IMG/VR virus record: IMGVR_UViG_2740892441_000001
Reading direction: 5' to 3' (one strand)
DNA from: a virus
Taxonomy: Duplodnaviria; Heunggongvirae; Uroviricota; Caudoviricetes
Length of the DNA: 64,000 bases
Under the pieces are notes generated by a model. It was not told where the DNA came from. It was given only the letters and a program-made list of their open reading frames with translations, and made no database searches. Of the stretch, positions 2,854-55,282 are shown one piece after another. The stretch's first letter is position 1. The number at the start of each line of letters is the position of its first letter. The translations under genes and the position numbers were made by a program.

Positions 2854-4110
2854 CTATCGAGAACCACCAAGAATAACACGGTTTTTGACTGGATACCTAC
2901 GATGTACTGGATAGCCCAATGCGTCTGCACTATGCTCAATGCCACCTGTCTTATCCATATCTCGTGTTCCAGGCTTGTAGATGACCTTTTCCAGTGAATC
3001 AATCAAATGCTTGCACTTCGGATCGATATACAGCCGGATATCTCCAGATGCGGTCATCAGCATTCGGTTAACAGCATTAACACGATCCGCAATTGGCGGG
3101 TGCTTTTTCGAATAATCGACACGTAAGAATCCCTTCTCTTTGAATATGTCTACGTCAGACTCCCCGCGAGCATGTTGGCGATAAGCACCTGCCGGATCTG
3201 GAAATACCGTTATCTGTGATTTCCAGCGCCAGAAGCGCCTCTCAAGCTCATCACAAACCTCTGCCGTGTTAGAGGAAAAGAGCACCAATTCATCAATTGC
3301 CCATAGCTCACCATTTGGCTGAGGTTGCAAAATTACGGAAGACATCGGGTCAATGTTGAAGTCCTGTCCTACCCATATAGGCAACCGAGGGTTGAACTGA
3401 AGCGGTTTAACATGCACGTTTCGATCGAACGGGTAGTAAACGCGCCCGGACATATTTTCAAAGCTGGCCAGGTACTCCTGAGCGAACGATTTAGGGTCCA
3501 TATCGTTCTTAGCAGCTTCAATTTCCGCCGTAGGCACAAACGGCGAATCAGCAGTTACAAACTGCCAGCTCTTCCACTGTCCCTTTCTTTGCAGCTCTAC
3601 GTTCTGGCCTATAGTCCACAGTTTGTGAAATTCCGAGAAGCCTTTTGGCGTACCAATGATCAGTGCACCGCCGCGTGTCGATGAAAGAGTAGGTCGTAAC
3701 ACCTTGTACCAGGTGTCAGCCTTCATATCCTGAAATTCATCAAGCACTACAAAATGCAACGCTACGCCGCGCAGAGTGTCAGGTTTATCAGCACCTTTGA
3801 GGGCGATCTCCGAACCGTTCTTCAACACGATTGTCATCGTGGTGTCGTTCTTTTTCCTAACCCACTTACGGGGCAGAACTTCCTGTAGATCGTCCCACAA
3901 AATCTGGCGAGCCATCTGGTAAGTAGGAGCGACATACCAGACCCTTTGCTTTTTTTCCTTTGCCGCCGCACGAATAATAGTGGAGATCGACAACCGGGAT
4001 TTTCCCCAGCGTCGACCAGCACAAACAACTTTAAATCGATGCGGAGACTGGAAGACTTTCATCTGTCCAGAATGCAGTTGCACAAGACTGAGCGAGGACG
4101 GGATTGCCAT
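2854..4110 (-). CDS. terL: Terminase large subunit
   Basis: 418 aa; Walker A-like VVCAGRRWGKS, Walker B-like HFVVLDEFQD, C-terminal nuclease-like region with conserved acidic residues. Confidence 0.9.
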   Translation of the reverse strand: MAIPSSLSLVQLHSGQMKVFQSPHRFKVVCAGRRWGKSRLSISTIIRAAAKEKKQRVWYVAPTYQMARQILWDDLQEVLPRKWVRKKNDTTMTIVLKNGSEIALKGADKPDTLRGVALHFVVLDEFQDMKADTWYKVLRPTLSSTRGGALIIGTPKGFSEFHKLWTIGQNVELQRKGQWKSWQFVTADSPFVPTAEIEAAKNDMDPKSFAQEYLASFENMSGRVYYPFDRNVHVKPLQFNPRLPIWVGQDFNIDPMSSVILQPQPNGELWAIDELVLFSSNTAEVCDELERRFWRWKSQITVFPDPAGAYRQHARGESDVDIFKEKGFLRVDYSKKHPPIADRVNAVNRMLMTASGDIRLYIDPKCKHLIDSLEKVIYKPGTRDMDKTGGIEHSADALGYPVHRRYPVKNRVILGGSR

Positions 4111-5214: not shown

Positions 5215-6105
5215 TTATGCCGGTAAAGCAATTTCTAACGGTTTATCCAAAGGTTGTTTGTCGAATGCCAGCAGTGGCAGCGTGTCAGGCAGTCGACGAC
5301 CAAAGTCAGGGTTTCGATACACACCATACAACGGAGACGTAAAGCTCAGGTTGTGAATGTCCTTGAGCAGCTTCACAATGCTGGCCTCGTCCACCAGACT
5401 GTCGGCAATGTCCTGAATCGTCGTGCCACGATTCCGCCCAGCTTTTGCCAGGGAACTGTTCTTGTGGTAGTCCGCCACCAGATCACGCAGTGCACGGCGA
5501 CGACGTGACTCGCTCATTGCGAACAACTCTTTGACGATCGCCTCGTTATCACCCGGGTCGGAGCGGAAATGGCGCTGGAACACACGCAGTGCACTTTCAT
5601 AGCTCTTCGGTCGCTCAGGGCGGATGAACTTGAACCCTGCTTTCATGGCGAAGGGATTGTATTTGCTCATCGAGGATTGGATCTCAATGATTGGCCGGTC
5701 ATGCATCCTGCTAACCAGGTTAATCATTCGATAAGAGACGCCTACGCCACGGTACTGAGTATCCACAACTGAGCGGCTGATCACCGCAAAGTTGTTATTC
5801 ACGTACCGGCCCCAGTACTGGTTAGCCACGGTGGTATTGGTGGTTGGTTTCAACTTAGGAAACATGCGATGGCGAGGTGCCAGCAGAAGTTTCGGGTAAG
5901 CCATAACCACGACGCCCACCAGACGGTCATCCAGTTCGCAGCGATAGTATGTTGGCGCGAAAGGTTTGCCGTCTGTTTTGTAGTGAAGCGACTTAAGAGC
6001 GTGCCAGTCCTCTACAGTTCCCTTTGTGACAGTCATTCGCTCCAGAAAGTCCAGATGACGCGGAAACTCTTCAGGGCGGTAGCGTTTAATGATGATGTCC
6101 GTCAT
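5215..6105 (-). CDS. Hypothetical protein (possible acyltransferase-like fold)
   Basis: 296 aa; stop/start overlap with upstream ATPase gene implies operon; weak GNAT-like segment RCELDDRLVGVVVMAYP. Confidence 0.5.
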   Translation of the reverse strand: MTDIIIKRYRPEEFPRHLDFLERMTVTKGTVEDWHALKSLHYKTDGKPFAPTYYRCELDDRLVGVVVMAYPKLLLAPRHRMFPKLKPTTNTTVANQYWGRYVNNNFAVISRSVVDTQYRGVGVSYRMINLVSRMHDRPIIEIQSSMSKYNPFAMKAGFKFIRPERPKSYESALRVFQRHFRSDPGDNEAIVKELFAMSESRRRRALRDLVADYHKNSSLAKAGRNRGTTIQDIADSLVDEASIVKLLKDIHNLSFTSPLYGVYRNPDFGRRLPDTLPLLAFDKQPLDKPLEIALPA

Positions 6106-6767
6106 GAATGGACCTCATCATAACTACCATTGTGATATTCCACCTTCACGCGTTCTTTGTAGTGCTTGGTGATCTGCATATCCGGGCGCAGCGCGTTCTT
6201 CAGGTCTTCGTGAGTCGTCGCCACCATTACCGTCGCACCAACCTTTCGAGCGGCACGCTGGAGGTTAGATGCCACAACCTGAGCGGTTACACGGTCTAGA
6301 ACAGCACCGAACTCGTCAGCAGCCCACACTTTAGCGCCTGACTCAATCAGTTTGGCAATCTTGAGACGATATTTCTGACCGTCTGACATTTCAGAAGGCT
6401 TGCGAACAAACAGATATGCATCGTTCAGACCTGCCATAGATAACAACCCAAGCGCATCACTGGTAGTTTTGCCCAGTTGGTCAATGACGTTAACCTCATT
6501 ATCGAAGGTAAAGTCATCAATAGAAGCTACAGAAAGCCCTTCATCCTTCATCTGGCGTTGCAACTCGCGCAACACAACGGATTTACCTGAACCGGATTGG
6601 CCGGTGATGTACACCACATCGCCCTGCTTCACTTCCAGCTCCAGATTGTCGTAAAGCGTCCACTCTTTTTCGTCCAGGCCAAGCCCGAACGACTCAGCGA
6701 TTTCCAACGTGCGCGTGGTTTTATTTACGCGTGTCTGAAACGATACGTTGATGATGTATTTGCTCAT
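6102..6767 (-). CDS. ABC-type ATPase domain protein (soluble)
   Basis: Walker A GQSGSGKS, ABC-signature-like MSDGQKYRL, Walker B VWAADEFGAVLD, H-loop-like ATTHED. Confidence 0.65.
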   Translation of the reverse strand: MSKYIINVSFQTRVNKTTRTLEIAESFGLGLDEKEWTLYDNLELEVKQGDVVYITGQSGSGKSVVLRELQRQMKDEGLSVASIDDFTFDNEVNVIDQLGKTTSDALGLLSMAGLNDAYLFVRKPSEMSDGQKYRLKIAKLIESGAKVWAADEFGAVLDRVTAQVVASNLQRAARKVGATVMVATTHEDLKNALRPDMQITKHYKERVKVEYHNGSYDEVHS

Positions 6768-7432
6768 GCAGCCATCTCCCCGGAAGAGATCTTCTCCGCA
6801 TATGCCACAAATGCGTCTACCCCGCTTTCTCCCGTCATTTCTTCCATGTGGGCAAGCAAATCACCAACAACAATGGCAGAGCCAGCAGGGAGCGTTTTAA
6901 AGCCCAATACGTCGATAACACGTACTTCTTCCGCTGCAACTTCACGACTGATCTCGGTGTGTTCATCCTTCTGTCGTTTAGTTTCTTCGCCCAGATCGAT
7001 AACTAGCGAGTCGGTGTCCATTTCTTCTGTCATGCTGCCAACGAGAACATTCAACTCCCGCTCTTCAAAGCCGAAAACCTCGATATCGTCCAGAACAAGC
7101 GACTCAAGTTCTTTCTGTAGCTTAATTGCATCGTAATCAATGCTGGCAAGTCGGTTATCTTCAAGGCGCTTCGCACGAACCTCGTCATCACTGAGATCAT
7201 CGCGAACAATAACCGGTACGCGCTCAAGTCCAGCAAAAATTGCAGCCTCACGGCGGCCGTGGCCAGTAATAATTACGTCGTTCTTATCGACCGTAATTGG
7301 CTGGTCAAATCCGCGCTTTTTAATGGCTGCGGCCAGATCTCGGATCTGCTGTTCATCATGCTTTTTGGCATTCATCTCATAGGGAATAAGATCTGCCGGG
7401 TCGCGATATACGATTTCAAACTTTTTGGTCAT
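6764..7432 (-). CDS. ParB-like nuclease domain protein
   Basis: ParB N-terminal-like motif ITGHGRREAA...VPVIV; start set at MTKKFEIVY (ATG overlapping upstream stop). Confidence 0.6.
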   Translation of the reverse strand: MTKKFEIVYRDPADLIPYEMNAKKHDEQQIRDLAAAIKKRGFDQPITVDKNDVIITGHGRREAAIFAGLERVPVIVRDDLSDDEVRAKRLEDNRLASIDYDAIKLQKELESLVLDDIEVFGFEERELNVLVGSMTEEMDTDSLVIDLGEETKRQKDEHTEISREVAAEEVRVIDVLGFKTLPAGSAIVVGDLLAHMEEMTGESGVDAFVAYAEKISSGEMAA

Positions 7433-8112
7433 TACATACACTCCTTGTAGTAGTCGACCAGCCACACCAGAGCCTCACCAGCGTTCTCCATTTCATTACC
7501 GGTGTTAATAGCCTGCTCTTTGATGATGTTTTTTATGGTTTCTGCAACACGATCTGACGCATCGAAAGTTACTTTGAAGCGCATGGTCTGATGTTCCGCA
7601 CCCACACGTTCGGTTTTCTCTCGTTTGTCGGTATCGACAGGCTCATCACTACCACGAGACAACGCCTCCAGTGCTTCAAGGTCGATTGCCGCCTCTTTTG
7701 CTAAAACCATCGAGATTTCGTCGTCATACGGGGCGATTTCAGACAGTTGATAGTCAAGTTCTGACTGAATTTCTTCAATGAAGCGTTGCAATGCGATTTG
7801 GTCGTCTTCACCGTATCGCTCGTTGTCCACTAGTGACATCTGTTTAGCTACGACATCGCTAATTTTGCCCACAGAAAGCACCGGAACCGTTGAAATTCCT
7901 TGCTCAATAGCAGCACGCCAGCGATGTTCGCCGCCGAGGATTTCAAAAAATCCATCTTCAAGTTCACGAGCCAAAATTGGCTTAAAAAAGCCCAATTTTT
8001 CGATAGAACCTTTCAGTTTTTCAAAATTCTGCGCACCAACCGAATTGGTGTTCCAGGTATTCGGGCGAAGGTTGGCAACATCAACCTGCAAAATCGTGAT
8101 TTTTACATCCAT
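7432..8112 (-). CDS. ParB-like nuclease domain protein
   Basis: ParB/Srx signature FEILGGEHRWRAAIEQGISTVPV; first gene of the operon, divergent from helicase gene. Confidence 0.65.
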   Translation of the reverse strand: MDVKITILQVDVANLRPNTWNTNSVGAQNFEKLKGSIEKLGFFKPILARELEDGFFEILGGEHRWRAAIEQGISTVPVLSVGKISDVVAKQMSLVDNERYGEDDQIALQRFIEEIQSELDYQLSEIAPYDDEISMVLAKEAAIDLEALEALSRGSDEPVDTDKREKTERVGAEHQTMRFKVTFDASDRVAETIKNIIKEQAINTGNEMENAGEALVWLVDYYKECM

Positions 8113-8194: not shown

Positions 8195-9754
8195 ATGACT
8201 GTTCGGATTGTATCTAACGCAGTAAATGCGCTTATTTCTGGCGCAGATGACAAGGTAAAGCAACTGGTGCAACAGATGTTGAGCTACGAAGTCGAGACTG
8301 GCGACTGGAAAGGCACAAGCACGATGTTCAACTGGAGTAAAAACTCGTTCCCTGCTGGCTTTGCCAAGCCTGTAGCGGCGAACTTGAACAAGGCGGGCAT
8401 CAAATGTGTTCATATCCGCAAAGACAAAGCCCCGGCGCTTGGAAAGCCAAATCCGGCGGTTAACCCATTCCCATACAATCCTGATTATGCGTATCAGGAT
8501 CAGACTGTGGAAACGCTAGTTCGCGAGGGAATGATGATTGCGCAGATCGCTACTGGTGGCGGAAAATCTAATGTTGCCTGCAAAGCAGCTGCACGTATCG
8601 GTCGAATGACATTATTTTTAACAACCCGCTCTGTTCTGATGTTTCAGATGGCCGAAAACTTCCAGAGATCCATCGACTACCGCGCCGAAAATGGCGAACC
8701 GTGGTTAAAAGACCAAAAGGTTGGAGTAATTGGCTCGGGTGAGTTCCAGGTATCGCGACATATCAACGTTGCTACAGTTCAAACTCTTGCAAGTTTCCTC
8801 GAAGAACCACCACGCGATGCAACACCAGATAAGAAAAGCTACCACCTCAAACGTCGGGAGTTGGTGAAACGCTTCCTTTCAAGTGTCTCTCTTCTTATTC
8901 TGGAAGAGGCGCATGAGTCTTCAGGCTCTAATTTCTATGACATTGCCAGATTATGTGCGAACGCAGACTATCGCCTGGCGCTTACGGCAACGCCGTTCAT
9001 GAAGGATTCTACGGAAGCCAACATGCGTCTGATGGCTGTGGCCGGGCGAATTGAAATAAAAGTCACGGAAAAGTACCTGATTGATAAAGGCATTCTGGCA
9101 AAGCCATACTTCCTTTATCATAAAGTTGCCTACAAACCGGACGAGGTCAGAATCAAGGCAGAACTTGCTAACAAACACCTCAATTTTAGAGTAGGTATGA
9201 GCACTGCCTACCAAAAGGCTTATCAGTTGGGGATCGTGTATAATTTGGGACGTAACGAGGCCATTGTGCGCGAAGCATTGCTCTATAAGCAACACTCTCT
9301 CAACTGCATGACTCTGGTTCGTCTTAAACGCCACGGGCAAATCCTGATGGAGATGATGAAGGAGTCCGGTCTTAGAGTTGACTTCATCTATGGGGAATCG
9401 AACCAGGCGACAAGGCAAGCAAAGCTGAACAGTTTAGCGTCTGGTGAAATAGATGTTTTAATAGGCTCGACTATTCTGGATGTCGGTGTTGATGTGCCAA
9501 GCGTTGGTGCGGTCATTCTTGCTGGTGGCGGGAAAGCAGAAGTTGAAATGAGACAACGTGTCGGTCGTGGCTTACGAGCCAAGAAGAATCAGGCAAACGT
9601 GTGTTTTATCACTGATTTCATTGACATTAGCAACAAATACCTGTTGTCTCACTCTTATGAGCGAAAACACATCATCGACACTACACCTGGCTTTGCAGAA
9701 GGTGTATTGCCTATTGATGGCGCATTCGATTTTGGAGTTCTGAAACGAGATTAG
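8195..9754 (+). CDS. Superfamily-2 DEAD/DEAH-box helicase
   Basis: Motif I IATGGGKSN, motif II ILEEAHE, motif III LALTATP, motif VI RQRVGRGLRA; RBS AAGGAAAGAGG. Confidence 0.8.
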   Translation: MTVRIVSNAVNALISGADDKVKQLVQQMLSYEVETGDWKGTSTMFNWSKNSFPAGFAKPVAANLNKAGIKCVHIRKDKAPALGKPNPAVNPFPYNPDYAYQDQTVETLVREGMMIAQIATGGGKSNVACKAAARIGRMTLFLTTRSVLMFQMAENFQRSIDYRAENGEPWLKDQKVGVIGSGEFQVSRHINVATVQTLASFLEEPPRDATPDKKSYHLKRRELVKRFLSSVSLLILEEAHESSGSNFYDIARLCANADYRLALTATPFMKDSTEANMRLMAVAGRIEIKVTEKYLIDKGILAKPYFLYHKVAYKPDEVRIKAELANKHLNFRVGMSTAYQKAYQLGIVYNLGRNEAIVREALLYKQHSLNCMTLVRLKRHGQILMEMMKESGLRVDFIYGESNQATRQAKLNSLASGEIDVLIGSTILDVGVDVPSVGAVILAGGGKAEVEMRQRVGRGLRAKKNQANVCFITDFIDISNKYLLSHSYERKHIIDTTPGFAEGVLPIDGAFDFGVLKRD

Positions 9755-10857: not shown

Positions 10858-11277
10858 ATGAAAGTAACAAACCTAATTATTCTGACACTAGCCACATCAC
10901 TAATTGGGTGTTCATCTTCATCTATATCTGTTTCAAAGGCAAAGTATGCGCCTCAAAGCAGAATATTTAAATATCAAACACCACATGAGTCTAGTCTAAC
11001 AATAGTTAGAGACAAAGGGCTGGTTGGTTCTGGATGTAACGCTTCCATATTCATCAATGGAGAAACGGCAGCAAAATTGGAACCTGGTGAAAAAGCAACT
11101 TTCTATCTTAATGAAGGAGATTGGATCGTTGGGACATCAATTGAAAGTTCAGGTCTTTGCGCATTTAACCCCTCTAGGATGGAGCGAGAAATAAAACTAA
11201 AGCAAGGCGACGCGAAAACATATCGGGTTTTCACTACCTGGGATGGTACAATGGATATATTGCCAACCACTTTATAA
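10858..11277 (+). CDS. Putative lipoprotein
   Basis: N-terminal signal peptide MKVTNLIILTLATSLIGCSSS with lipobox LIGC. Confidence 0.6.
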   Translation: MKVTNLIILTLATSLIGCSSSSISVSKAKYAPQSRIFKYQTPHESSLTIVRDKGLVGSGCNASIFINGETAAKLEPGEKATFYLNEGDWIVGTSIESSGLCAFNPSRMEREIKLKQGDAKTYRVFTTWDGTMDILPTTL

Positions 11278-11806
11278 TGATATGACGACGAAAGACATCA
11301 CCTACGGTGTGCCAGCAGAAGTCTGGCCTCGAGATTACACTAACGTTGAAAAACTACTGATGTTCTGGCGCAGAGAACAAATTCCTGTAAGGGCCACTCT
11401 AGAAGATGGCCAGGCGTTTTGCATGTACGTTTATGGCCTCATGCCATCTCGTAACAAAGTTGACCTTTGCCCAGCCCCTTTTGACAAAGAAAATCGTATA
11501 AGGCTCCCACTTGAACGCATTAGTACAATTGAATCAGGTGTGGTTGACAGTATCGCTCACGATTTCAAAGGTCGATTAACAGTTCACCCTGATTATGTCG
11601 ATAATCGGCCATCACGCCGCGATTTTTTTGCTATTTGCAACCAAGCCTATAAAGCAAACAAATCTATAAGGGTGTACATGGCGGATGGCCGTGAAATTGA
11701 GGGGGTGTCAGCAGGCGCAGATGCTTGTCAGGTTACACTACGTGTCGAGAACGGTAGAAAAATAGTTATTTTGTTCGATTGGGTTGAACGAATTTTGCCT
11801 TTTTGA
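11243..11806 (+). CDS. Hypothetical protein
   Basis: 187 aa ORF; true start may be the internal Met at ~11281. Confidence 0.45.
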   Translation: MVQWIYCQPLYNDMTTKDITYGVPAEVWPRDYTNVEKLLMFWRREQIPVRATLEDGQAFCMYVYGLMPSRNKVDLCPAPFDKENRIRLPLERISTIESGVVDSIAHDFKGRLTVHPDYVDNRPSRRDFFAICNQAYKANKSIRVYMADGREIEGVSAGADACQVTLRVENGRKIVILFDWVERILPF

Positions 11807-12399: not shown

Positions 12400-13050
12400 A
12401 TGGCTAACATTATCATTTCTAAAAAATCCATCATTGAAGCTGCTTCCATTGTATCCGACGAGCTGCGCGAAAAAGCAGATCTGGCAACTCAAACATATAA
12501 CGAACATTATAAAAATGGTACGCACACTAAAGCAGACAAAGCAAATATGCAAGCTGCGACCACTAAACTTGCTTACTTCATCAACAACGTTGTAAACGCT
12601 GTTGAAGACGAAAAATTATGCTCTGTTTTCTACTATGCGATTAAAGCAAGCAAACAAGCGCCAGAAGTATTTTTCCGTGATGCAATGACTAATAGTTATT
12701 CACTGGAAAAACTGGTTTATCTGGTTAAATCTATTAAAGCTGGTAAATGCGTTTATTCCGTCGCTGATATGTCAGGATCTCGTGTATTCGCTTTAATCGA
12801 TATGATTAACGACGAGATCGACACGTTCACCAATGGCGCTGTTTTCGATTTAATGAATGAAGCTAAAAAAGCGTGTGAGATTAAATTGGACGCTGGCTAT
12901 ACTCAAGCCAACCAGTTGATCAATCTTTGCGAACGTCTCGGACTTGTTGAAAAAGTCAAAGGAGCTGGGAGCGCAAAAGCTGGTACTCAGCAATATCGCT
13001 TTATCAAGAATGATTTCTACAATTATCTAGCTGATGCTTTCAAAGCGTAA
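12400..13050 (+). CDS. Hypothetical protein
   Basis: 216 aa ORF with good RBS and own promoter; hairpin GCGCCCACTATGGGCGC at 13064-13080 downstream. Confidence 0.6.
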   Translation: MANIIISKKSIIEAASIVSDELREKADLATQTYNEHYKNGTHTKADKANMQAATTKLAYFINNVVNAVEDEKLCSVFYYAIKASKQAPEVFFRDAMTNSYSLEKLVYLVKSIKAGKCVYSVADMSGSRVFALIDMINDEIDTFTNGAVFDLMNEAKKACEIKLDAGYTQANQLINLCERLGLVEKVKGAGSAKAGTQQYRFIKNDFYNYLADAFKA

Positions 13051-13321: not shown

Positions 13322-13549
13322 ATGTTTGTTCTTATCGCTGGCGTTAACGTCCACAATGAATATTGTGTTAATGATATTGCTGGGATCGCTGGTTACGCTG
13401 GATCTGTTGAGCTTATAGATGAAACGACGCGCAAAATTGACTTATTGAGCGACCAGGAGCGAAAAAAAGCAGACGTGAACGACGCTGATATATTTTTAAT
13501 GTTAAAAGCGTTTGTAGAAATGGGATTTGAAATCAGTTTACATAAATAA
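13322..13549 (+). CDS. Hypothetical small protein
   Basis: 75 aa, RBS AAGGAG upstream. Confidence 0.5.
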   Translation: MFVLIAGVNVHNEYCVNDIAGIAGYAGSVELIDETTRKIDLLSDQERKKADVNDADIFLMLKAFVEMGFEISLHK

Positions 13550-13553
13550 AATC

Positions 13554-13578
13554 GAGCGCCCACTATGGGCGCTTTTTT
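13554..13578 (+). terminator. Rho-independent terminator (GAGCGCCCACTATGGGCGC + TTTTTT)
   Basis: GC-rich hairpin followed by T6; same stem as hairpin at 13064-13080. Confidence 0.8.
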
Positions 13579-13601
13579 CGTTTCCAATACTCCCACCATA
13601 A

Positions 13602-13628
13602 CGCGCCATCATTGGCGCGTTTTTTATT
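13602..13628 (+). terminator. Second tandem rho-independent terminator (CGCGCCATCATTGGCGCG + TTTTTTATT)
   Basis: Hairpin plus T-run read directly. Confidence 0.75.
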
Positions 13629-14029
13629 GTCTTTAACTCACTCCAACAACATAAAAATAAGCGCCAAAATAACGCCATAGACGCGATTTTATATCCTCGC
13701 CAGTACATACCCATTACTTAACACATTAACGCGCTTAAAACGCGTTATATTGCGCTATAGAGTATGGTTAATCGTTGGCTTTTAGTCTTGCTTTATGATC
13801 CGCGTTTATTTGTCGGCGCGGATCGGCATTTTGTTTTGTTCCGTATCCGCTCGCGTATTATGTGCGCGTGATTTTTCACATAATCACACCACTTAATCAC
13901 GTATGTGATTATGCTACGAAAGAAATCTGGATGTCTCAGGCGACGAAAGTCATCATAATTTTCCCCGCTCACCTGTCCGACAACCGCTGGTTGGATTCAA
14001 CCAGCTTCCCGATGTTTTTTCTATATAAA

Positions 14030-14160
14030 GGCGAATGCAGCCGTTTCCCGAAAAAATCCTGGCCGTTTCCCGTCGGCTCATGAATGCGTTCCTCGCCGTT
14101 TCTGAAAATTTCCCTGCGGCAGCTGGTGGCTATAGAGAAAGGGCCGTTTCTGGCCCTCTT
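14030..14160. repeat. Array of about 4 direct repeats of (G)CCGTTTCC(C/T)GAAAA-type units
   Basis: GCCGTTTCCCGAAAA, GGCCGTTTCCCGTC, GCCGTTTCTGAAAA, GGCCGTTTCTGGCC read directly; same repeat family recurs at 17640-17800. Confidence 0.65.
14131..14156 (-). terminator. Terminator-like hairpin (GGGCC..GGCCC + T-rich) after gene 14166-14648
   Basis: Minus-strand hairpin followed by TTTCTCTAT. Confidence 0.45.
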
Positions 14161-14165
14161 CTCAG

Positions 14166-14648
14166 TTACACGCCATCAAGGATGTGGATGCGGTTGCTTG
14201 CGTATACATTCAGCATAAAGTTAGCGCAAAACAGTTTCCATGTATCAACGCCAGCGGTATACGTAATGTTTTTGCATTTAATCGCATTGTTGGCGATCCG
14301 CATCCCCTGCGATACTGCTTCATCGTCGGAAAATTTGAACGACGATTGAGTTTTAATCCAGACAGAAATCTGCGTAGCGAACTCAATCAGCTTGGACTGG
14401 CAGAATCGCCCGGAGCGCACCGGAAAGACGAACGTTCCGAATCCAGAATTTACCACATACGCTTTCTCAAATACCCGCGAGTAACGACGATTGCCAATGA
14501 TGTCGCGTGCAATAATGCATTTTTCTTGTGCTGACAGTTCTACCGTCTCATTGTCGCGCCATGCACCAAGTACTCGTTTTTCAATGTCAGAGAACGTTAC
14601 AGCGATATTGCCATGTGCGGGTGCGTTTACAGTAGCGATAAAATTCAT
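14166..14648 (-). CDS. Hypothetical protein
   Basis: 160 aa; preceded by conserved promoter/leader element and RBS AAGGAAA. Confidence 0.55.
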   Translation of the reverse strand: MNFIATVNAPAHGNIAVTFSDIEKRVLGAWRDNETVELSAQEKCIIARDIIGNRRYSRVFEKAYVVNSGFGTFVFPVRSGRFCQSKLIEFATQISVWIKTQSSFKFSDDEAVSQGMRIANNAIKCKNITYTAGVDTWKLFCANFMLNVYASNRIHILDGV

Positions 14649-14725
14649 GATTATTTCCTTATCGTAAATAACAAATTGTTTTCTTGTTGGTGTTAATTAT
14701 CGTTGTACGAATAAGGCGTCAAAGT
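14649..14725 (-). promoter_or_regulatory. Conserved promoter/leader element (TTGACG ... GATAAT ... AACACCAACAAGAAAACAATTTGTT)
   Basis: -35/-10-like hexamers plus the conserved leader motif shared by more than 10 genes in the window. Confidence 0.5.
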
Positions 14726-14823
14726 GGAAAGTTGCGGTAGCCGGACGGGAACAGGTGGGTTTTTCGGTTGCCTGGAGGTAAGAGGTTGGTGTTTTTAGCC
14801 TGCGGGAAACAGGATGGTCATTT

Positions 14824-14847
14824 AAGGCCACCAATGCTGGTGGCCTT
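14824..14847. terminator. Conserved hairpin AAGGCCACCAATGCTGGTGGCCTT (terminator or processing site)
   Basis: Perfect stem-loop; near-identical copy at 15294-15320 and related copy at 16945-16963. Confidence 0.4.
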
Positions 14848-14852
14848 AGTCT

Positions 14853-15134
14853 TTAGTGGAGCAGACCGATGTCGATGGTATCCCCTGAATCCCCCACACG
14901 GATCATCAGCATGGCGAAGGCGTTTAGTGGATAACTGGCGTGCCATTCAGGGAAGCGGTCATCTCGCATGAAGTCGGCAATGTCGTAAACGCAGCCCTCA
15001 AAGTGGAAGAATCGCGTGCTTACCTGCTCGTCATATTCCACATGATCCATTTCTTGCTGTTCTGTTTCCGGCAAGTCCAGCCATGATTCAAGGAATACAT
15101 TTTGTGCTTTAGGGGTAATGGTGAAATCAGTCAT
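14853..15134 (-). CDS. Hypothetical small acidic protein
   Basis: Start reassigned to internal Met (MTDFTITPK...) because the conserved promoter element lies inside the longer ORF; RBS GAGGATA. Confidence 0.5.
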   Translation of the reverse strand: MTDFTITPKAQNVFLESWLDLPETEQQEMDHVEYDEQVSTRFFHFEGCVYDIADFMRDDRFPEWHASYPLNAFAMLMIRVGDSGDTIDIGLLH

Positions 15135-15469
15135 GAGCATATCCTCACTGCGTAAACATATTGTTTTCTTGTTGGTGTAATTATCGCAGTGTAGATAAGG
15201 CATAAAAGAAGTTAATACAGGCTGAATACACAAGAAAGGTTCTGGAAGTTGATAGCCAGGTTTCAAACTAACCTTCGGTTATTAAAAGTCATTTAAGACC
15301 ACCAATGCTGGTGGCCTTAATAATTATCGCCCGATTACGCTAAGGATCTTTTCCTCAACTGATTTGTTGTTGCGACTAAACTGCCTTGCGTATCTGATGA
15401 CAGAAGAGGCGTTTTGCTTTCTGACCATCTCGGCTCTTTCCTTCAGGCGTTTCTTGAAATCGCCCATAT

Positions 15470-15862
15470 TTACCACCAGGCGCAGAACGTCAGTCTGTTA
15501 TTGTGAAAGTCGTAATTATTAATCAGCTCTTCTACAAGTGCTTTCAACTCCCCCACGTCACGCCAGTAATCTTCGTCATAATCCATGCTGCCAAAGTAAA
15601 AACCTCCAGTCGGCTCGAACTCATCCTGAGTAGGCAGAAGGGCTTCGCAATTACTCTCGTTGAGACGAATCAGAGTAGCCTTTAGAGCGCAAAGATCATT
15701 CTTTGTAATTTCTAAAAATTTAAAACTATCAACTTTGCCTACGTTCCGATTCACCCACCCAACAAGCGCATTAAACTTATAAAAATAGCCTACTTCCTTT
15801 CTGGCTGCTTCGTTATTCAGATCGTTTTTTGGCTGCGTCTCGATATAGATATCAAGTCCCAT
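15470..15862 (-). CDS. Hypothetical protein
   Basis: 130 aa; RBS AAGGAAACC; upstream GGCAGAAAACAAATT element. Confidence 0.5.
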   Translation of the reverse strand: MGLDIYIETQPKNDLNNEAARKEVGYFYKFNALVGWVNRNVGKVDSFKFLEITKNDLCALKATLIRLNESNCEALLPTQDEFEPTGGFYFGSMDYDEDYWRDVGELKALVEELINNYDFHNNRLTFCAWW

Positions 15863-15986
15863 GATGGTTTCCTTATTAAGTATTAAGTTGCTTCAGTGAA
15901 AGCATTTTCACAAATCAGATAAGGCAGAAAACAAATTATTATCGGGCATAAGAAAATGGCGCGGTTTACGCGCCATTTAAAGAGGA

Positions 15987-16382
15987 TTAAGCGAATACGC
16001 TTTCAGGGATTAAGGTATCAGCAGGAATGCCGGATGTAATACGCAGACCGTACTGGCCAATCCAGGTGGTGCTGGTGTTCAGGCTGGAGGCGAATACGGA
16101 ATTAACCATATTCATCATGGTTTCAAACACCTCTTCATCAACCTGGCGGAAGTAGTTCTCGATTTTCAGCAGCAGCGGGTCAGTTGCATCGAGAATGGAC
16201 TGGTATTGAGTCGCGTACTCGCCGCCGGAGGCATCACCTTTACGCACGATCGTACTGGCCTGTACTTCGGCACCAGTTTCGGTGTTGTACGTAACAACGG
16301 TGATTTTTGCCACATTCTTACCTTCGGCGGTTTCAGAGGCATAGTAAACATCAACTGTCAGTTTTTCGCGTTTAACGGTCAT
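15987..16382 (-). CDS. Hypothetical protein
   Basis: Start set at MTVKREK; RBS GGAGAGTGAA; upstream palindrome GTAAGTACATACTTAC. Confidence 0.5.
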   Translation of the reverse strand: MTVKREKLTVDVYYASETAEGKNVAKITVVTYNTETGAEVQASTIVRKGDASGGEYATQYQSILDATDPLLLKIENYFRQVDEEVFETMMNMVNSVFASSLNTSTTWIGQYGLRITSGIPADTLIPESVFA

Positions 16383-16508
16383 TTCACTCTCCGTAGTGTA
16401 TTGGTTATTTTTATATTCTATGATCGTAAGTATGTACTTACAAAACAAAAAAGCCCCGTAAGGATGGCGGGGCTGTCGTACTGTCGACTAATTACCACTT
16501 GCACATTA

Positions 16509-16820
16509 TCAGGCTATTGCCATCACTGATGCTCTCTGAATCTCTTGCTGGGCCACGCGGTTAACTTCCATCAAAGCCAGTTCGAGCTGATGTTCCGGCC
16601 ACATTCTTTGAAACGCCATCCAGCCTTTTCCACGCTGGCGGCGAACATTCATTACATAACGAGTAAAGGTGTTTTTATCGAAAGACACCGCTGTTTCACG
16701 GAACAGACGAATAGAGGTTCCATTGGCAACGATGTCCAGCAAAGTTAATTGAGCAACCAGCGCAGGCTTCTCTTTTCTCTTCTGGTCTTTGTCCAGACCA
16801 AGAACCAATGATTTTTTCAT
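16509..16820 (-). CDS. Hypothetical protein
   Basis: Start set at MKKSLVLG (RBS GGAG) downstream of conserved promoter element at 16833-16865. Confidence 0.5.
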   Translation of the reverse strand: MKKSLVLGLDKDQKRKEKPALVAQLTLLDIVANGTSIRLFRETAVSFDKNTFTRYVMNVRRQRGKGWMAFQRMWPEHQLELALMEVNRVAQQEIQRASVMAIA

Positions 16821-16973
16821 CACAACTCCGTAAACAACTTGTTTTCTCAATGGCGTAAATAATACCAGTAAGAAAACGGCTACAAAGCATATTGATCAGG
16901 TGCATGAGCGATATGCAGGTTCTTCCCTGCGGCTATAGAGAAATTAAGCCAGCAATGCTGGCTTTGGTTGGGG

Positions 16974-17303
16974 TTACTCGAATACTTCAAGAAACTCCTG
17001 AACGTCCCAATGCTGGACGAGGTGAAGATAGACCTTAGAAATCACGTCATTTTCGCTATCGCATGTGAAGTAGTACTTCTGGCTGCGGTTGTATGTGTCC
17101 ACACAAAATTCGCTCATATCCATAAAGTCAGCATCTTCACCCATGTCGCAAATCATCAAAGCAGGTGCGTCATCACGAGTCATCAGCTCAAGCACCCACC
17201 GCGAATTGATCAGAGTGGAAGACCAACCTTCTAACTCATAAAACTGATCAAACTCTTTTTGAGTTAATTTCTTGATTTGGTTGATGTCGATATTTGCAAA
17301 CAT
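16974..17303 (-). CDS. Hypothetical acidic protein
   Basis: 109 aa; conserved promoter element at 17318-17350 immediately upstream. Confidence 0.5.
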   Translation of the reverse strand: MFANIDINQIKKLTQKEFDQFYELEGWSSTLINSRWVLELMTRDDAPALMICDMGEDADFMDMSEFCVDTYNRSQKYYFTCDSENDVISKVYLHLVQHWDVQEFLEVFE

Positions 17304-17639
17304 AAATCAATCCTTAAACAACATGTTTTCTTATTGGTGTTATTATCGCAATAACGCATAGGCGAAAAAGGATTTTATTCCGGTGAATGTGGTTTTGGCA
17401 GTGAGTTTTCAGGTTCAGTACCGAGTACACTTTTTACATTATTCTGATTTAGTAGCCGAAGGTGGCTGGTGGGCAGAATAATCATCTCCCCGAAAACCTA
17501 CTGAAATCGATTGTGACCCGCTGACTGTCTGGCACAATTACGCTGTAGTTGGGCATTCAGAGGGAATCCAGCGGTAAGTAAGTTCGCCTGCACGTGAGCG
17601 CCTCTCTTCTTCCCGCACATTACAGGTGGATAGCCGCAA

Positions 17640-17800
17640 CTCTCCCTCTCGCTATACCGGTACGCCGCCGTTCCTGAACCGGCATCGAGCCTTTTCCCGA
17701 AATCCACACAGGCAACTCGACCGTTTCCCTGAAAACCTCCAGCCGTTCCCCGAAGGCAACCCAGCCGTTTCTGTAGCGGGATGCAGCCTTTTCCCTGTAT
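17640..17800. repeat. Array of about 6 direct repeats of the CCGTT(T/C)CC(C/T)GAA family
   Basis: CGCCGTTCCTGAAC, AGCCTTTTCCCGAAA, GACCGTTTCCCTGAAAA, AGCCGTTCCCCGAAGG, AGCCGTTTCTGTAG, AGCCTTTTCCCTGTAT at ~22-30 bp spacing; contains DnaA-box-like AAATCCACACA. Confidence 0.65.
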
Positions 17801-17949
17801 GGACCGAAGGCTGACCGTAGGGGTGTTACGGGGGATAAAATCAGTAGTTGAATAAATACGAAAAAGGAGGCGACACCCCTCCTTCCCTCCCCACTTATAC
17901 ATACCTGGCTTCTTCGCTATGCATGTTGTGTTTTCTTCGTGTTTTATCT

Positions 17950-18500
17950 GTTTCAACCTCTCTATAGGCGTTAATGCTCACTCCTTCCAGAACGTTCTAT
18001 ACGGCAACTATTTCTGTTGGTGAATTGGGTGTGTTGTTTTCTCTGTCGGTGTATGTGGTTTCGTTCGTTTTGCGGTGGTTCTTCTATAGGGTGTTCTCGT
18101 CGTTTTGGTGATTGTTCTTCTCCGTCTATGGAGTAATGGCAGGTGGGCGATTCCTTTCGTTATTGTGTTTGAGTTGTTTGTCTGGAGTGCGTGAAGGGCT
18201 TTTGTAGTTATTCGTGTATTGGGTAATGGCGTTTCCCGTGATTGTTCTGTTTCGTGTCTTTTGGGATTGAAGAATCCTTGCGGTAACAGGCTTCGTTGGG
18301 GTTTCAGTGATTCTGGTGTTTCTTCGCTGTTTGGGTAATGGCGTGTCGTGGGTATCGCGCGTATGAATGTTTTCGGATTGCCTGTGAAAGTTAGGTTGGT
18401 TGTCCGGTAGCCTGGGAAGAAGAGGTGGGTCTTTTCGGTAGCCTGCCATAAAGAGGTTGGTTGTTTTTGGGAATGGCATATGCGTTATTTAGTTGTTTTG
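17950..18500. repeat. Strongly GT-skewed non-coding region built from degenerate tandem repeats
   Basis: Plus strand almost entirely G/T; repeated TTGGGTAATGGCGT units (~18135, ~18220, ~18335) and GGTAGCCTG units; overlapping ORFs have implausible T/P/Q/N-rich composition. Confidence 0.6.
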
Positions 18501-18866
18501 TTATGCCTGAAAATAAGTTGTTTATATGGTTATGTAACGCAACGGGAACGATTTTGAGCGTGTGTTTTTGTTGGTAGTGTGTTGGGTCGTCTGTGGTGAA
18601 AATTGGACGCTGTGGCGCTGTCTGCTGCGTAGGATTGCGGGTATAAGAAGTAATGTGTGAAAACGTCAATTTTTTAGACCAAATCGGGTGAAAGCGTTGA
18701 CGTTTCGTTGATCTGTTATTCAGTTGTTTTCTTGTTTGTATAAACAACTATAACCTATTGATATTTAAGGGTGTGATTGCAGGTATGGAAGGGGAGTAGT
18801 GGCGATCAACGGATTCTTATAGAAAAGAATCAAATTGTGACCGCCATTATCAATAAGTTGCAACCG

Positions 18867-19436
18867 TTAGTTGTTCAGATAAACATTTGGAACACGGACG
18901 TAGAAGTTCCTGTCACCGGTAAGTTCCAGAGTAATGTTAATGTCATTACCATTGTCTAGTGTAGCCGTTGCTCTATAGAACTTATCCGTCACCTTGTCCT
19001 CTATTGTCACCTTCATACATTTTGGTGCAGTCGAACCGTTATTCTCTTTCAGAATAGTTGTCACGAGAGGGCAGGCTGCTTCTTCAAGAGCAACCTCGTC
19101 CTTGTGTGGGATGCCGATGAAGATAATCCAAGCCAGCGACGCAACGATTATGATAAATGGCACTCTGCTGCCTTTTGTAATAGTCGCGCGCTTCCAGAGA
19201 TAGACAGGCAGGAGGAATACCCCCCATAGAATTGAAGGTGGTTCACAGCCAGACTCCGATAGAGCCATTCTGTCAGCTACTAACAAACCGATGGTAGTTA
19301 CACCCCCAATTATAATAGCGTAATTGGTATACTCTTCCGGCAATACTCCAAAGAAGAAAGGCATGAACGCTAGAATCCACGCATAAATGTTATTCAGAGG
19401 TTTTGTTTGTTGGTTCTGGGTTTCCATCACATCCAT
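18867..19436 (-). CDS. Putative membrane protein
   Basis: 189 aa with several hydrophobic helices (e.g. IYAWILAFMPFFFGVL, FIIIVASLAWIIFIGI). Confidence 0.5.
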   Translation of the reverse strand: MDVMETQNQQTKPLNNIYAWILAFMPFFFGVLPEEYTNYAIIIGGVTTIGLLVADRMALSESGCEPPSILWGVFLLPVYLWKRATITKGSRVPFIIIVASLAWIIFIGIPHKDEVALEEAACPLVTTILKENNGSTAPKCMKVTIEDKVTDKFYRATATLDNGNDINITLELTGDRNFYVRVPNVYLNN

Positions 19437-19588
19437 TCCATCACATAAAAATCGCTTTTATATATTATCAATTTTCTCACTTGTATAACCTAAATACGCA
19501 TCCGTTTATCAATCCACCTTCCACAAACATCAGCTTTGGCTATGAAAAATGACAATCTCAAAGTGAAACCATTATCATAGGATAACGA

Positions 19589-19810: not shown

Positions 19811-20119
19811 TTACCATTGCCAGCACTCAAGCCCTTCAACGACCGGTGCGCCACAATCAAAATGTACAGAGTCAAAGCCTACATCAAGTACTTTCTGAAT
19901 GTTCGCAATCGCGCCCTCGGATATACCATATCGACGCAACTCATCTTTCCAGTCATCGTCCTGTAACCCGGCGTGGACAATGCAACCGTACTCAATTTGT
20001 GAAACCCAATCCAGCTCATTGCTTGCGATCATGAATCGGCGAGCATCTTCCTCTGATGTATGAGATGAGCTGATCAATGCCACCTGGTAGGCTTGGGTAA
20101 TGTTCAACATTTCAACCAC
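19811..20119 (-). CDS. Hypothetical protein
   Basis: 102 aa; tandem conserved promoter elements at 20120-20195 upstream. Confidence 0.5.
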   Translation of the reverse strand: MVEMLNITQAYQVALISSSHTSEEDARRFMIASNELDWVSQIEYGCIVHAGLQDDDWKDELRRYGISEGAIANIQKVLDVGFDSVHFDCGAPVVEGLECWQW

Positions 20120-20271
20120 TCCGAAACAATTTGTTTTCTTATGTGGCTTATTATCTCAATCAACAAAAGGCAGAAAACAAATTGTTTTAGGGTTTGTTAA
20201 AGTCAGAAGGGATTGTGTCTATATGAAAATGCCCAGCGTATTGCCGGGCATTGTGAAGAATGGTTGCTTAA

Positions 20272-22305
20272 TTACTTAACCTGGTGGCCAGGTTTAGCAC
20301 CAGCATCCGGGCTTAACAGGAAGATGTCTTTCCCGCCGGGGCCAGCAGCCATCACCATGCCTTCGGAGATACCGAAACGCATTTTACGCGGAGCCAGGTT
20401 AGCCACCATAATGGTGTGACGGCCAATCAGTGCCTGTGGGTCTGGATAAGCGGAACGGATGCCTGAGAAGACATTGCGTTTTTCACCGCCGAGATCCAGC
20501 GTCAGGCGCAGCAGTTTGTCAGAACCTTCAACAAAGTCTGCGTTTTCGATCAGCGCCACGCGCAGGTCAACTTTGGCAAAGTCGTCAAAGGTGATGGTTT
20601 CCTGAATCGGGTCGTCTGCCAGCGGGCCAGTAACTGGCGCGGCAGTAGCTTTCACTTCTTCTTTAGACGCTTCCACCAATGCTTCCACCTGTTTCATGTC
20701 GATACGGTTATACAGTGCTTTGAACGGATTCACTTTATGGCCCAGCAGCGGTTGCTGGATACCATCCCAGGTCAGTTCTGTATTCAGGAATGCTTCTGCA
20801 CGTTCAGTCAGTTTCGGCAGTACCGGCTTCAGGTACGTCATCAGCACGCGGAACAGGTTAATGCCCATAGAGCAAATCGCCTGCAGATCGGCATCGCGTC
20901 CTTCCTGCTTCGCCACCACCCACGGAGCCTGTTCATCGACATAGCGGTTAGCCAGGTCAGCCAATGCCATGATTTCACGGATAGCTTTACCAAATTCGCG
21001 GCTTTCCCATGCTTCGCCAATCACTTCAGCGGCATCAGTAAAGGTTTTGTACAGTTGCGAGTCAGCCAGTTCGCTTGCCAGCACGCCGTCAAAACGCTTG
21101 TTGATAAAGCCTGCATTACGGGAGGCCAGGTTAACCACTTTGTTCACGATATCGGCATTCACGCGCTGAACGAAATCCTCCAGGTTGAGATCGATATCAT
21201 CAATGCGCGAAGAGAGTTTCGCAGTGTAGTAGTAACGCAGGCTGTCGGCGTCAAAATGATTCATCCAGGTGCTGGCTTTAATAAAGGTGCCGCGAGACTT
21301 GGACATCTTCGCGCCGTTCACCGTCACATAGCCGTGAACAAACAGGTTGGTCGGCTTGCGGAAGTTGCTGCCTTCCAGCATGGCAGGCCAGAACAGGCTG
21401 TGGAAGTAAACGATATCTTTACCGATGAAGTGGTACAGCTCGGCGGTGGAGTCTTTCTTCCAGTATTCATCGAAGCTGGTAGTGTCGCCGCGCTTGTCGC
21501 ACAGATTCTTGAAGGAACCCATGTAGCCAATCGGTGCGTCCAGCCAGACGTAGAAATATTTACCCGGCGCGTTCGGAATTTCAAAACCGAAGTAAGGTGC
21601 GTCGCGGGAGATATCCCACTGTTGCAGACCAGATTCAAACCACTCCTGCATTTTGTTTGCCACCTGCTCCTGCAACGCACCGCTGCGGGTCCATGCCTGC
21701 AACATTTCGCTGAAAGAGGGCAGATCAAAGAAGAAGTGTTCAGAATCACGCATTACCGGCGTAGCGCCAGAAACTACCGATTTCGGCTCAATCAGTTCAG
21801 TCGGGCTGTAGGTCGCGCCGCAAACTTCACAGTTATCGCCGTATTGATCTGGCGCTTTACATTTCGGACAGGTGCCTTTCACAAAACGATCCGGCAGGAA
21901 CATGCCTTTTTCCGGGTCGTACAACTGAGAGATAGTGCGGTTTTTAATAAAACCGTTCTCTTTCAGGCGAGTATAGATAAGCTCAGACAGCTGGCGGTTC
22001 TCTTCGCTGTGCGTCGAGTGATAGTTGTCATAGCTGATGTTAAAGCCTGCGAAATCAGTCTGGTGTTCCTGGCTCATTTCGCCAATCATCTGTTCCGGTG
22101 TGATACCAAGCTGCTGTGCTTTCAGCATGATCGGCGTACCGTGGGCATCGTCGGCGCAGATGAAGTTGACCTCGTGGCCGCGCATTCGCTGGTAACGGAC
22201 CCAGACATCAGCCTGGATGTGCTCCAGCATATGGCCGAGGTGGATTGAGCCGTTAGCGTACGGCAGCGCGCACGTCACCAGAATTTTCTTCGCGACTTGG
22301 GTCAT
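20272..22305 (-). CDS. metG: Methionine--tRNA ligase (methionyl-tRNA synthetase), enterobacterial type
   Basis: 677 aa from [26 protein letters not shown]... with HIGH (HLGH) and KMSKS motifs; recalled as near-identical to E. coli MetG; start reassigned to 22305. Confidence 0.97.
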
Positions 22306-32245: not shown

Positions 32246-32815
32246 TCAATTAGAGCTTTGAAAGGCTTTGTGTGGCTGTGTTGCGAGGTTATGTCGATGA
32301 CTTAACTCACGCATCATGTCTTCAAGGCGACTCTTTGTGTCGTCGAGTTGATCAGCCATTGCTCCCAAAAGCTGACGAACGGCCATCGGATCGTCGCTGT
32401 TTAGTGATGGCATTTTATAACCCGCCTGAGAAGACATCAGATTGAACGCAGACATCAACATCGTTAGAGAGGATTTAAGCCCGGCAATTTCACGATCTTT
32501 GCTGGCAATAATCGTCTCACTTTTGTTACCGTCATGAGTTCCTTGAGTCTCGCTCACCATATCCAAAGTCGCTTGCAACTTATCAGCTCTCTCTTTTTCA
32601 GCAAGGTAATGAACACCGAAATGATGTGCTAAAGCTACAACCTGAGTTGGTTCTTCAAAGGTGGAATTAAAATTAAGTACTGTAAACAGTCTCTCAAATA
32701 TGGAAACGTCTTCTGTTCCCCGAACAATGCCTAACATTTTGACAAGTTCATTAGCATCCATTTCTTCGAATAGGGCGTTTTGTTCATCAGCTATTGCTTT
32801 GCATTTCTCGCACAT
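32246..32815 (-). CDS. Hypothetical protein
   Basis: 189 aa; conserved promoter element at 32828-32860 upstream. Confidence 0.5.
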   Translation of the reverse strand: MCEKCKAIADEQNALFEEMDANELVKMLGIVRGTEDVSIFERLFTVLNFNSTFEEPTQVVALAHHFGVHYLAEKERADKLQATLDMVSETQGTHDGNKSETIIASKDREIAGLKSSLTMLMSAFNLMSSQAGYKMPSLNSDDPMAVRQLLGAMADQLDDTKSRLEDMMRELSHRHNLATQPHKAFQSSN

Positions 32816-32954
32816 GTGTTTTCCTTAATGCTTAAACAAGTTGTTTTCTTATTGGCTTTATTGTGATGTGACATAAAAGGGGAGCAAGCTAAACGTAAAG
32901 GTGCAAACTCTCTATTTCGGTCAACGAAACACAAGGGCCAAATGGCCCTTGTCA

Positions 32955-33538: not shown

Positions 33539-33631
33539 GTGTTTTCCTTTTGTTATTTGTCAAAACAAGTTGTTTTCTAGTTAAATAAATTGCTTACGCA
33601 AAGACGGTCAATGCATAGGCACTAACAGCCG

Positions 33632-39143: not shown

Positions 39144-39152
39144 TACTACTCC

Positions 39153-55278: not shown

Positions 55279-55282
55279 CCCA

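Follow-up and report, generated by a model that had tools for sequence, protein, structure and literature searches.

Two oriented direct-repeat arrays of an SSU5/pHCM2-type phage-plasmid as possible iteron-like sites at a lytic origin

The 64,000-nucleotide stretch of Caudoviricetes DNA in IMG/VR record IMGVR_UViG_2740892441_000001 (the window) contains two arrays of one short direct repeat, A1 and A2, which lie about 3.6 kb apart and bracket a block of small genes. They are oriented, mostly phased, and family-specific, and we infer that they are cis-acting and bind a protein at the DNA level. Tentatively, they may be iteron-like arrays for a family-encoded protein, with a lytic origin of replication as their possible location. 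A first-pass annotation of the window had suggested a centromere- or origin-type element. This general class fits the arrays, which are phased, oriented, family-specific, and conserved, but the specific supports put forward for it were wrong, as described below.

By sequence identity, the window is an E. coli phage-plasmid of the SSU5/pHCM2 type. Over the 5 kb around the arrays, identity is 92-96% with E. coli plasmids such as pHXH-2 (NZ_MH257954) and with Escherichia phage Cyrano (pLF82). Parts of this stretch are about 70-80% identical to elements of Klebsiella, Enterobacter, Salmonella (pHCM2 and SSU5), Citrobacter, and Cronobacter, and likewise to Yersinia pestis pMT1, whose backbone belongs to this type. 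The annotated relatives encode head, tail, and terminase proteins and an IncFIB-type repA, and their replication and nucleotide set comprises DnaE, a DnaB-like helicase, ligase, RNase H, NrdAB, and a UvsW-like helicase. Phage-plasmids of this type are frequent in clinical Escherichia, Klebsiella, Enterobacter, and Salmonella and can bring resistance genes with them. Neither the lytic origin nor the packaging signals nor the control of the early genes has been mapped in them, and a literature search found no paper that describes the arrays or, for SSU5, a lytic origin or termini. The conserved cis pair offers an experimental handle on the switch from plasmid to phage replication. Because the arrays bracket an exchange hot spot of small early genes, they are also landmarks for comparative mining and engineering.

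Architecture of the two arrays

The array unit is an asymmetric direct repeat of about 13 bp, cAGCCGTTTCCc, present on the + strand only. The arrays consist of the following parts.

14040-14108, + strand: array A1, three units with spacings of 22 and 33 bp
14040-14053, + strand: A1 unit 1, GCCGTTTCCCGAAA
14062-14075, + strand: A1 unit 2, GCCGTTTCCCGTCG
14095-14108, + strand: A1 unit 3, GCCGTTTCTGAAAA
14109-14129, + strand: conserved A1 tail, TTTCCCTGCGGCAGCTGGTGG, which holds a Chi octamer at 14122
17667-17799, + strand: array A2, six units at 17667, 17689, 17720, 17742, 17764, and 17786

The unit spacings in A2 are 22, 31, 22, 22, and 22 bp, and most spacings in both arrays correspond to approximately integral helical turns. 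The second half of the unit (GAAA) carries only 0.2-0.3 bits, and its spacing is variable. A position weight matrix was trained on nine clear units. These nine score 16-24 bits, and the rest of the window and of pHXH-2, the complete relative used for whole-genome scans (111,915 bp), reaches at most 13.2 bits, with exactly two strong array clusters in the 112 kb of that plasmid. The pattern GCCKTTYCYS has 12 matches in the 64-kb window against 1.8 expected, and none of 100 shuffles reaches 12; as the arrays themselves supplied the pattern, the enrichment is not an independent test. Nine of the matches lie inside the arrays and ACCGTTTCCC at 17720 is the tenth, all ten on the + strand.

The first-pass annotation had described two arrays with a common unit and orientation in DNA free of open reading frames (ORFs). 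This description is borne out by the nine units of the weight matrix, all on the + strand, and by PGAP records from four genera, in which both arrays lie in DNA without annotated genes. Its estimate of about six copies for A2 agrees with the six units found. For A1, about four copies had been counted, of which three are clear units; the supposed copy at 14143 is part of a terminator stem-loop and reads GGCGTTTCC in relatives.

Conservation and family specificity

Presence of the arrays in close relatives had been named beforehand as a point on which the element should be judged, and both arrays are found again at about 70 loci of the family; unit and orientation are unchanged there, and most spacings are close to a multiple of 11 bp. 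The genera concerned are Escherichia, Klebsiella, Enterobacter, Salmonella, Citrobacter, Cronobacter, and Yersinia. Across five genera there is hardly any change in the first two A1 units or in the spacer between them, and A1 is found 3' of a 160-aa gene in all 68 distinct IMG/VR sequences, with spacings of 22 and 33/34 bp. Among the loci with longer flanks, about 65 of 77 have both arrays in the same orientation and 1.5-4.5 kb apart, with unit spacings of 22, 31, 33/34, 44, and 53/55 bp. Array copy number in the family ranges from 2 to 6.

Column identity in A1 (68 distinct sequences) is 0.93 for the core, 0.83 for the spacers, and 0.69 for the flank, and the corresponding values for A2 (62 distinct sequences) are 0.85, 0.67, and 0.61. 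As judged from these alignments, the arrays are under purifying selection. It is thus highly improbable that they are functionless leftovers of recombination or tandem duplications drifting where modules join. Their location at homology breakpoints and the variable copy number would suit such an origin, but the unit cores exceed spacers and flanks in conservation in about 60 distinct sequences, and the two-array layout is kept even in genera whose homologous DNA on either side shares only about 67-78% identity with the window. Both arrays stand at a border, the left side being variable between lineages and the right side conserved.

The tandem GCCGTTTCCC-N12-GCCGTTTCCC was found in 57 IMG/VR contigs among 2.9 M viral contigs, nearly all of them family members. 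In 185,579 species genomes it has 29 matches. Those in Enterobacterales are only pMT1 and a Buttiauxella contig, and the remainder are scattered over unrelated taxa. A host transcription-factor regulon was rejected, as no tandem units occur in the enterobacterial chromosomes of this genome set.

Surroundings of A2

A2 runs directly into about 300 bp of non-coding DNA that is highly conserved and includes the AT-rich element listed here.

17646-17660, + strand: conserved CTCTCTATACCGG-type element at the left edge of A2, flanking A2 in all lineages
17835-17866, unstranded: AT-rich element between A2 and the terminator, 32 bp, 78% A+T, with an invariant TTGAAT
17861-17887, - strand: intrinsic terminator, GGAGGGGTGTCGCCTCC followed by TTTTT, conserved in relatives
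17900-18750, - strand: asymmetric gene-free region, up to 76% G+T on the + strand in 200-bp windows
L005 5100-6100, L006 6500-7300, L007 6300-7200, and L252 15260-16360: the asymmetric region in relatives

The left-edge element and the RepA iteron read in reverse have CTCTCTATA in common. The AT-rich element lies 36 bp rightward of the last A2 unit, counted from the 14-bp span of that unit; on the left side of A1 there is a shorter stretch with 67% A+T.

The asymmetric region is the most skewed DNA in the window (AT skew to -0.6 and GC skew to +0.5). Its length is 850-1100 bp, and its skewed composition is conserved across genera. It contains three copies of GGGTAATGGC and B-repeat units. PGAP annotates no gene in it in four genera, and relatives do not agree in the ORFs it contains. 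Its minus-strand boundaries are a promoter-leader copy (18744-18724) at one end and the terminator (17887-17861) at the other. The region probably makes an untranslated, A+C-rich, and nearly unstructured RNA starting at that leader: the predicted 881-nt transcript folds at -137 kcal/mol with almost no structure. The terminator ends this predicted transcript, and A2 lies about 60 bp beyond. An ORF called inside the region is at floor level in lysogen RNA-seq (PMC9928086 supplement). The RNA could form an R-loop, be a target of Rho, or act as a protein sponge.

A possible lytic origin

With respect to function, we rank a lytic origin or replication enhancer first, followed by a transcription barrier, a centromere, and a genome-end boundary. 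The proposed mechanism would run as follows. The asymmetric ~13-bp sites lie on one helix face in most family members and would presumably be bound by a family-encoded protein, one candidate being a 216-aa winged-helix protein. The bound arrays would seed a wrapped nucleoprotein complex in the region of a lytic origin of replication, and this region would be made up of A2, the AT-rich element, and the untranslated asymmetric region transcribed towards A2. A1, 3.6 kb away, would serve as a second or auxiliary array, comparable to those of P4 ori/crr and SPP1 oriL/oriR.

We favor this assignment, with reserve, because iteron-like arrays, an adjacent AT-rich element, and transcription that ends at the site coincide around A2, and because the element has an autonomous replisome without a mapped origin and two-array origins have precedents in P4 and SPP1. 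The own replisome genes together with RNase H and the UvsW-like helicase lead one to expect a separate lytic origin. A lytic origin would be expected to show three or more phased direct repeats next to an AT-rich stretch, and A2 has both. In P4 (ori/crr) and SPP1 (oriL/oriR), a single phage initiator binds two separated arrays, and the P4 clusters are bound by a winged-helix origin-binding domain. The likeness consists in two clusters of one short direct repeat, kilobases apart, in non-coding or lightly used DNA. An array-linked initiator gene is, however, not present here, and the unit sequence is unrelated. The iterons of theta plasmids and of the lambda ori are similar in having three to six direct repeats at ~22-bp spacing on one face with an AT-rich neighbor, but differ in that no rep gene flanks A1 or A2.

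Several observations weigh against this assignment. No initiator gene is adjacent, the replication genes are tens of kilobases away, and the AT-rich element is short. No DnaA box with one mismatch or fewer occurs in or next to either array, and the cumulative GC and AT skews have no inflection at the arrays. Cumulative skew was rejected as an origin signal, because it tracks gene orientation only. A Serratia plasmid has a homologue of the winged-helix protein and no intact array. In the most divergent member, from K. quasipneumoniae, the unit itself is kept, but a pattern scan gave spacings of 36 bp in A1 and of 26 and 10 bp in A2; weaker units recognized by eye would split the A1 spacing into 22 + 14 and add a spacing of 24 to A2. 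Helical phasing is typical of the family and not universal.

As a variant, A2 and its neighbors might be a transcript-primed (R-loop) lytic origin, which we consider improbable. The untranslated A+C-rich RNA of ~870 nt would run towards A2, end at the AT-rich element, and prime or open the origin, with an organizer protein bound to the arrays. The RNase H and UvsW-like helicase of the element would process or dismantle the hybrid, as at T4 oriF/oriG and in ColE1.

The candidate binder is encoded to the left of A1.

12400-13050, + strand: 216-aa family-restricted protein with a C-terminal winged-helix domain, about 1 kb from A1

It is a candidate array binder and was not accepted as a proven one, because its fold is generic, it has no significant viral matches, and the Serratia homologue occurs without intact arrays. 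The 160-aa neighbor of A1 was dropped as a binder, as its predicted model has no fold match.

Comparison with the plasmid origin and with RNA elements

The plasmid origin of the element lies elsewhere in the window.

53680-54180 and 55280-55760, both orientations around repA (54223-55278): RepA iterons of the plasmid origin, two upstream sets and a downstream incA-like set

These iterons are 36-40 kb from the arrays. An identity with them was rejected, since the array unit GCCGTTTCC differs in sequence and period from the iteron ATCCACTATAGAGAG, which has a 21-bp period. The 8-mer of the RepA iteron core, CTATAGAG, occurs at 13755, 14130, and 16933 on the + strand and at 17967 and 18978 on the - strand, that is, five times within 13.7-19 kb. 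With a one-mismatch copy, CTATAGGG, at 18084 (+), there are six occurrences outside the origin. These stray 8-mers may be isolated RepA half-sites (for handcuffing?) or a coincidence.

A DnaA-box-like site in A2 had been part of the first-pass interpretation. The sequence in question, AAATCCACA (17700-17708), has two mismatches to TTATCCACA and lies in a spacer that is not conserved in relatives. The only perfect TTATCCACA in the window is at 53940, in the plasmid origin.

A structured RNA or a known RNA family was rejected on two grounds. Folding of the two A2 strands gave z-scores of -0.53 and 0.02 relative to shuffled controls, which is no signal, and in Rfam no match reached the gathering score, nor did any at E<=1 fall in the arrays or their vicinity. 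The single Rfam match within 13500-19500 is a weak small RNA at 13555-13629. An unstructured RNA element would be another matter: the C-rich, G-poor + strand could constitute a Rho utilization (rut) region halting antisense or convergent + strand transcription ahead of the leftward transcription units. The GC skew across A2 is -0.31, the + strand RNA is no more structured than its shuffles (z 0.02), and A1 is downstream of a convergent + strand operon. The invariant G and T positions and the strict conservation, however, go beyond what Rho needs; there is no evident + strand promoter upstream of A2, and conservation in the form of discrete 10-mers is not usual for rut sites. A rut function is thus rather remote.

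Partition proteins and plasmid-only derivatives

The first-pass annotation had named ParB-like proteins, at 6764-8112, as possible binders to be examined at the arrays as parS-like sites. The proteins belong to the following operon.

5215-8112, - strand: ParB_N operon encoding two ParB_N proteins, an ABC-type ATPase, and a 296-aa protein; it adjoins the terminase genes

In the two ParB_N proteins (6764-8112), Pfam finds ParB_N only. They have a GxxRxxA box and acidic C-terminal halves, and they align poorly with Spo0J over the helix-turn-helix (HTH) stretch, so that no HTH is supported by sequence. Judged by these features, the pair does not look like classical ParB and lends no support to the arrays as parS sites. 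The operon is kept in pMT1 and in the K. quasipneumoniae relatives. In N15, the centromere sites are dispersed, far from the par operon, and within phage gene regions. The core GTTTCCC(G) of the array unit resembles the half-sites TGTTTCAC of parS and ATTTCCCG of the Noc-binding site (NBS), but the units are asymmetric direct repeats, not 16-bp palindromes, and the arrays are lost or decayed in plasmid-only relatives. The ParB_N proteins were set aside as parS binders, as neither Pfam nor the Spo0J alignment supports an HTH.

The family also has a conserved partition operon, which lies outside the window.

pHXH-2 32515-33542 (L163 2516-3543) and pHCM2 38130-39154: type Ib ParA (222 aa) and a 117-aa ribbon-helix-helix (RHH) protein, family-conserved

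The arrays could be centromere-like sites bound by these two proteins or by another partner and dispersed as in N15; on balance, we regard this as unlikely. The ParA/RHH operon has no adjoining repeat array either upstream or downstream in pHXH-2 and pHCM2, and the plasmid as a whole has no non-coding arrays other than the RepA iterons, A1, A2, and the B repeats. Type Ib centromere-binding proteins, however, normally autoregulate at the parA promoter, and a weight-matrix scan of pHXH-2 found no A-like site in the parA promoter region. Asymmetric 13-bp units per 22 bp are atypical for RHH proteins, and the ParB_N proteins, as noted, have no supported HTH.

Plasmid-only derivatives also argue against a centromere, and equally against a part in plasmid replication. 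In pMT1, which exists only as a plasmid, A2 and the asymmetric region have been lost through an IS1541-associated deletion. The Serratia Rep3 plasmid retains ParA/RHH (the RHH core is nearly identical) as well as the asymmetric region and the winged-helix protein, but its A2 is decayed, with one good unit left in the sequenced parts examined; the site is thus not kept wherever the RHH protein is kept, as would be expected for type Ib. These two cases imply that plasmid maintenance does not need A2. The arrays appear to be dispensable for plasmid life and kept where the phage is intact, which suggests that they act in phage mode. The Serratia quinivorans Rep3 plasmid (L253/L254) is itself an SSU5-family mosaic that also carries a DEAD helicase, a ParB_N protein, and leader elements.

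Small-gene block and the possibility of a transcription barrier

A1 sits in a convergent gap between a + strand operon, which encodes the UvsW-like helicase, an FljA-like protein, and the 216-aa protein, and the end of a long leftward gene run. The features between A1 and the asymmetric region are as follows.

14130-14160, - strand: terminator hairpin of the gene at 14166-14648 (-), read from the sequence; contains the doubtful unit at 14143
14166-14648, - strand: conserved 160-aa gene, phrog_1641, function unknown; its 3' end always abuts A1
14738-14823, + strand: B repeats, TAGCCTG-N5-AAgAGGTgGGT, three copies, upstream of the 160-aa gene promoter
14853-17303, - strand: small-gene block, whose gene content differs between relatives
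14670-14724, 15154-15208, 16833-16887, 17317-17371, and 18724-18744: promoter-leader copies, AAGAAAACAA-N-TTGTTT
18408-18466: two further B-repeat copies inside the asymmetric region
L163 (pHXH-2) 3560-3600 and L254 (Serratia quinivorans Rep3 plasmid) 9480-9530: the leader element elsewhere

The hairpin was not listed for the window by a terminator consensus scan; its counterpart in relatives has the canonical form, a GC stem with a T-run after it on the minus strand. A1 starts about 20 bp past this terminator. All genes at 14166-17303 are on the minus strand and belong to PHROG families of unknown function. Most block genes have their own sigma-70-like promoter, a conserved A/C-rich leader (ACACCAACAAGAAAACAA-N-TTGTT) that holds a small palindrome, AAACA-N-TGTTT, and a terminator. 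Copies of the promoter-leader element stand in front of the ParA-like gene, the asymmetric RNA, and the majority of the small early genes; from its sequence, it is probably a shared operator or leader. The bracketed small early genes are probably host-takeover or anti-defence genes, and they are near floor or low in lysogen RNA-seq (PMC9928086 supplement).

A repressor-like protein on the oriented arrays might stop read-through or insulate the early block. Both arrays are located 20-70 bp past minus-strand terminators, in one orientation relative to transcription and exactly at the border of conserved and variable sequence. The small-gene block is silent in lysogens according to the same supplement, and a winged-helix protein is encoded next door. 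The number of sites does not fit well: there are only two clusters in 112 kb and not sites across many intergenic gaps, and three to six phased copies exceed the needs of a roadblock. Strong intrinsic terminators are, moreover, already there. The stoperators of mycobacteriophage L5 are about 30 single sites across its genome. They share with the array units the asymmetric 13-bp form, a fixed orientation to transcription, an intergenic position, and a temperate phage as carrier, but the 112 kb examined here hold two tandem arrays only and not dispersed single sites. A barrier function is accordingly a less probable explanation, though a serious one.

A possible genome-end or entry boundary

The arrays might alternatively mark a genome-end or entry boundary, i.e., the edges of a terminally repeated or first-injected early block. 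In T7, the SRL/SRR arrays lie beside the terminal repeat. The comparison with T5 is closer in architecture, with two untranslated repeat regions that have a common repeat. T5 repeat regions 2 and 3 are conserved and untranslated and bracket variable small pre-early genes (bioRxiv 10.1101/866236). The variable block between them measures 1.85-4.26 kb in T5-like phages, as against 1.5-4.5 kb here, and one repeat region adjoins a repeat-filled non-coding region, which exceeds 1 kb in T5 (bioRxiv 10.1101/866236). As in T5, the inter-array distance varies and one array adjoins a long non-coding region. The small genes here have individual strong promoters and terminators.

The T5 elements nevertheless differ: they share a 131-bp element in inverted orientation with paired DnaA boxes and are accompanied by long terminal repeats. 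The repeats here are direct and without DnaA boxes, unlike the inverted elements with paired DnaA boxes inside a long terminal repeat that define a T5-type injection stop. Our search yielded no literature on SSU5 virion termini. Physical genome ends at the arrays were rejected, as neither the starts of phage records nor the ends of metagenomic contigs coincide with them. A genome-end boundary has a small chance of being correct, smaller than that of a centromere.

The ends of IMG/VR family contigs cluster at 20110-20930 (L089, L091, L092, L099, L103, L104, and L111), four of them at 20270-20271. This cluster near 20.1-20.9 kb is probably an assembly break at a variable junction or, less probably, a physical end.

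Other features near the arrays

The + strand operon left of A1 also encodes the FljA-like protein.

11243-11806, + strand: FljA homologue, Pfam PF03614 (E 1e-83), with a weak Hfq-like match; family-conserved

FljA is a post-transcriptional repressor of phase-1 flagellin, and the conserved homologue may allow the element to shut down flagellin in its host. The 12-mer TGAGCCGACGGG is common to A1 unit 2 and the 5' untranslated region of E. coli fliC. The arrays were nonetheless rejected as sites of the FljA-like protein, and the match is attributed to chance because two other 12-mers of the 105-nt region match elsewhere in the window and because it is absent in relatives.

Chi octamers (GCTGGTGG) occur on the + strand at 14122, 14836, 15307, and 17465, i.e., four in 3.4 kb, and two of the four are inside terminator stem-loops. 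The window as a whole has 15 Chi sites against ~1.4 expected. An oriented Chi cluster protecting the region was rejected, since relatives carry Chi on both strands in inconsistent orientation.

The B repeats have a period of ~30 bp, and in K. quasipneumoniae (L252 12160-12290) a 36-bp unit is repeated four times. The 36-bp unit contains GGCGGTAGCCGG, which resembles the RfaH ops element, GGCGGTAGCGTG. To the left of A1, in the convergent gap at 13868-13915, there are perfect 9-bp inverted repeats, CATAATCAC and GTGATTATG, 17 bp apart; with further AATCAC copies around them, this segment has an operator-like look.

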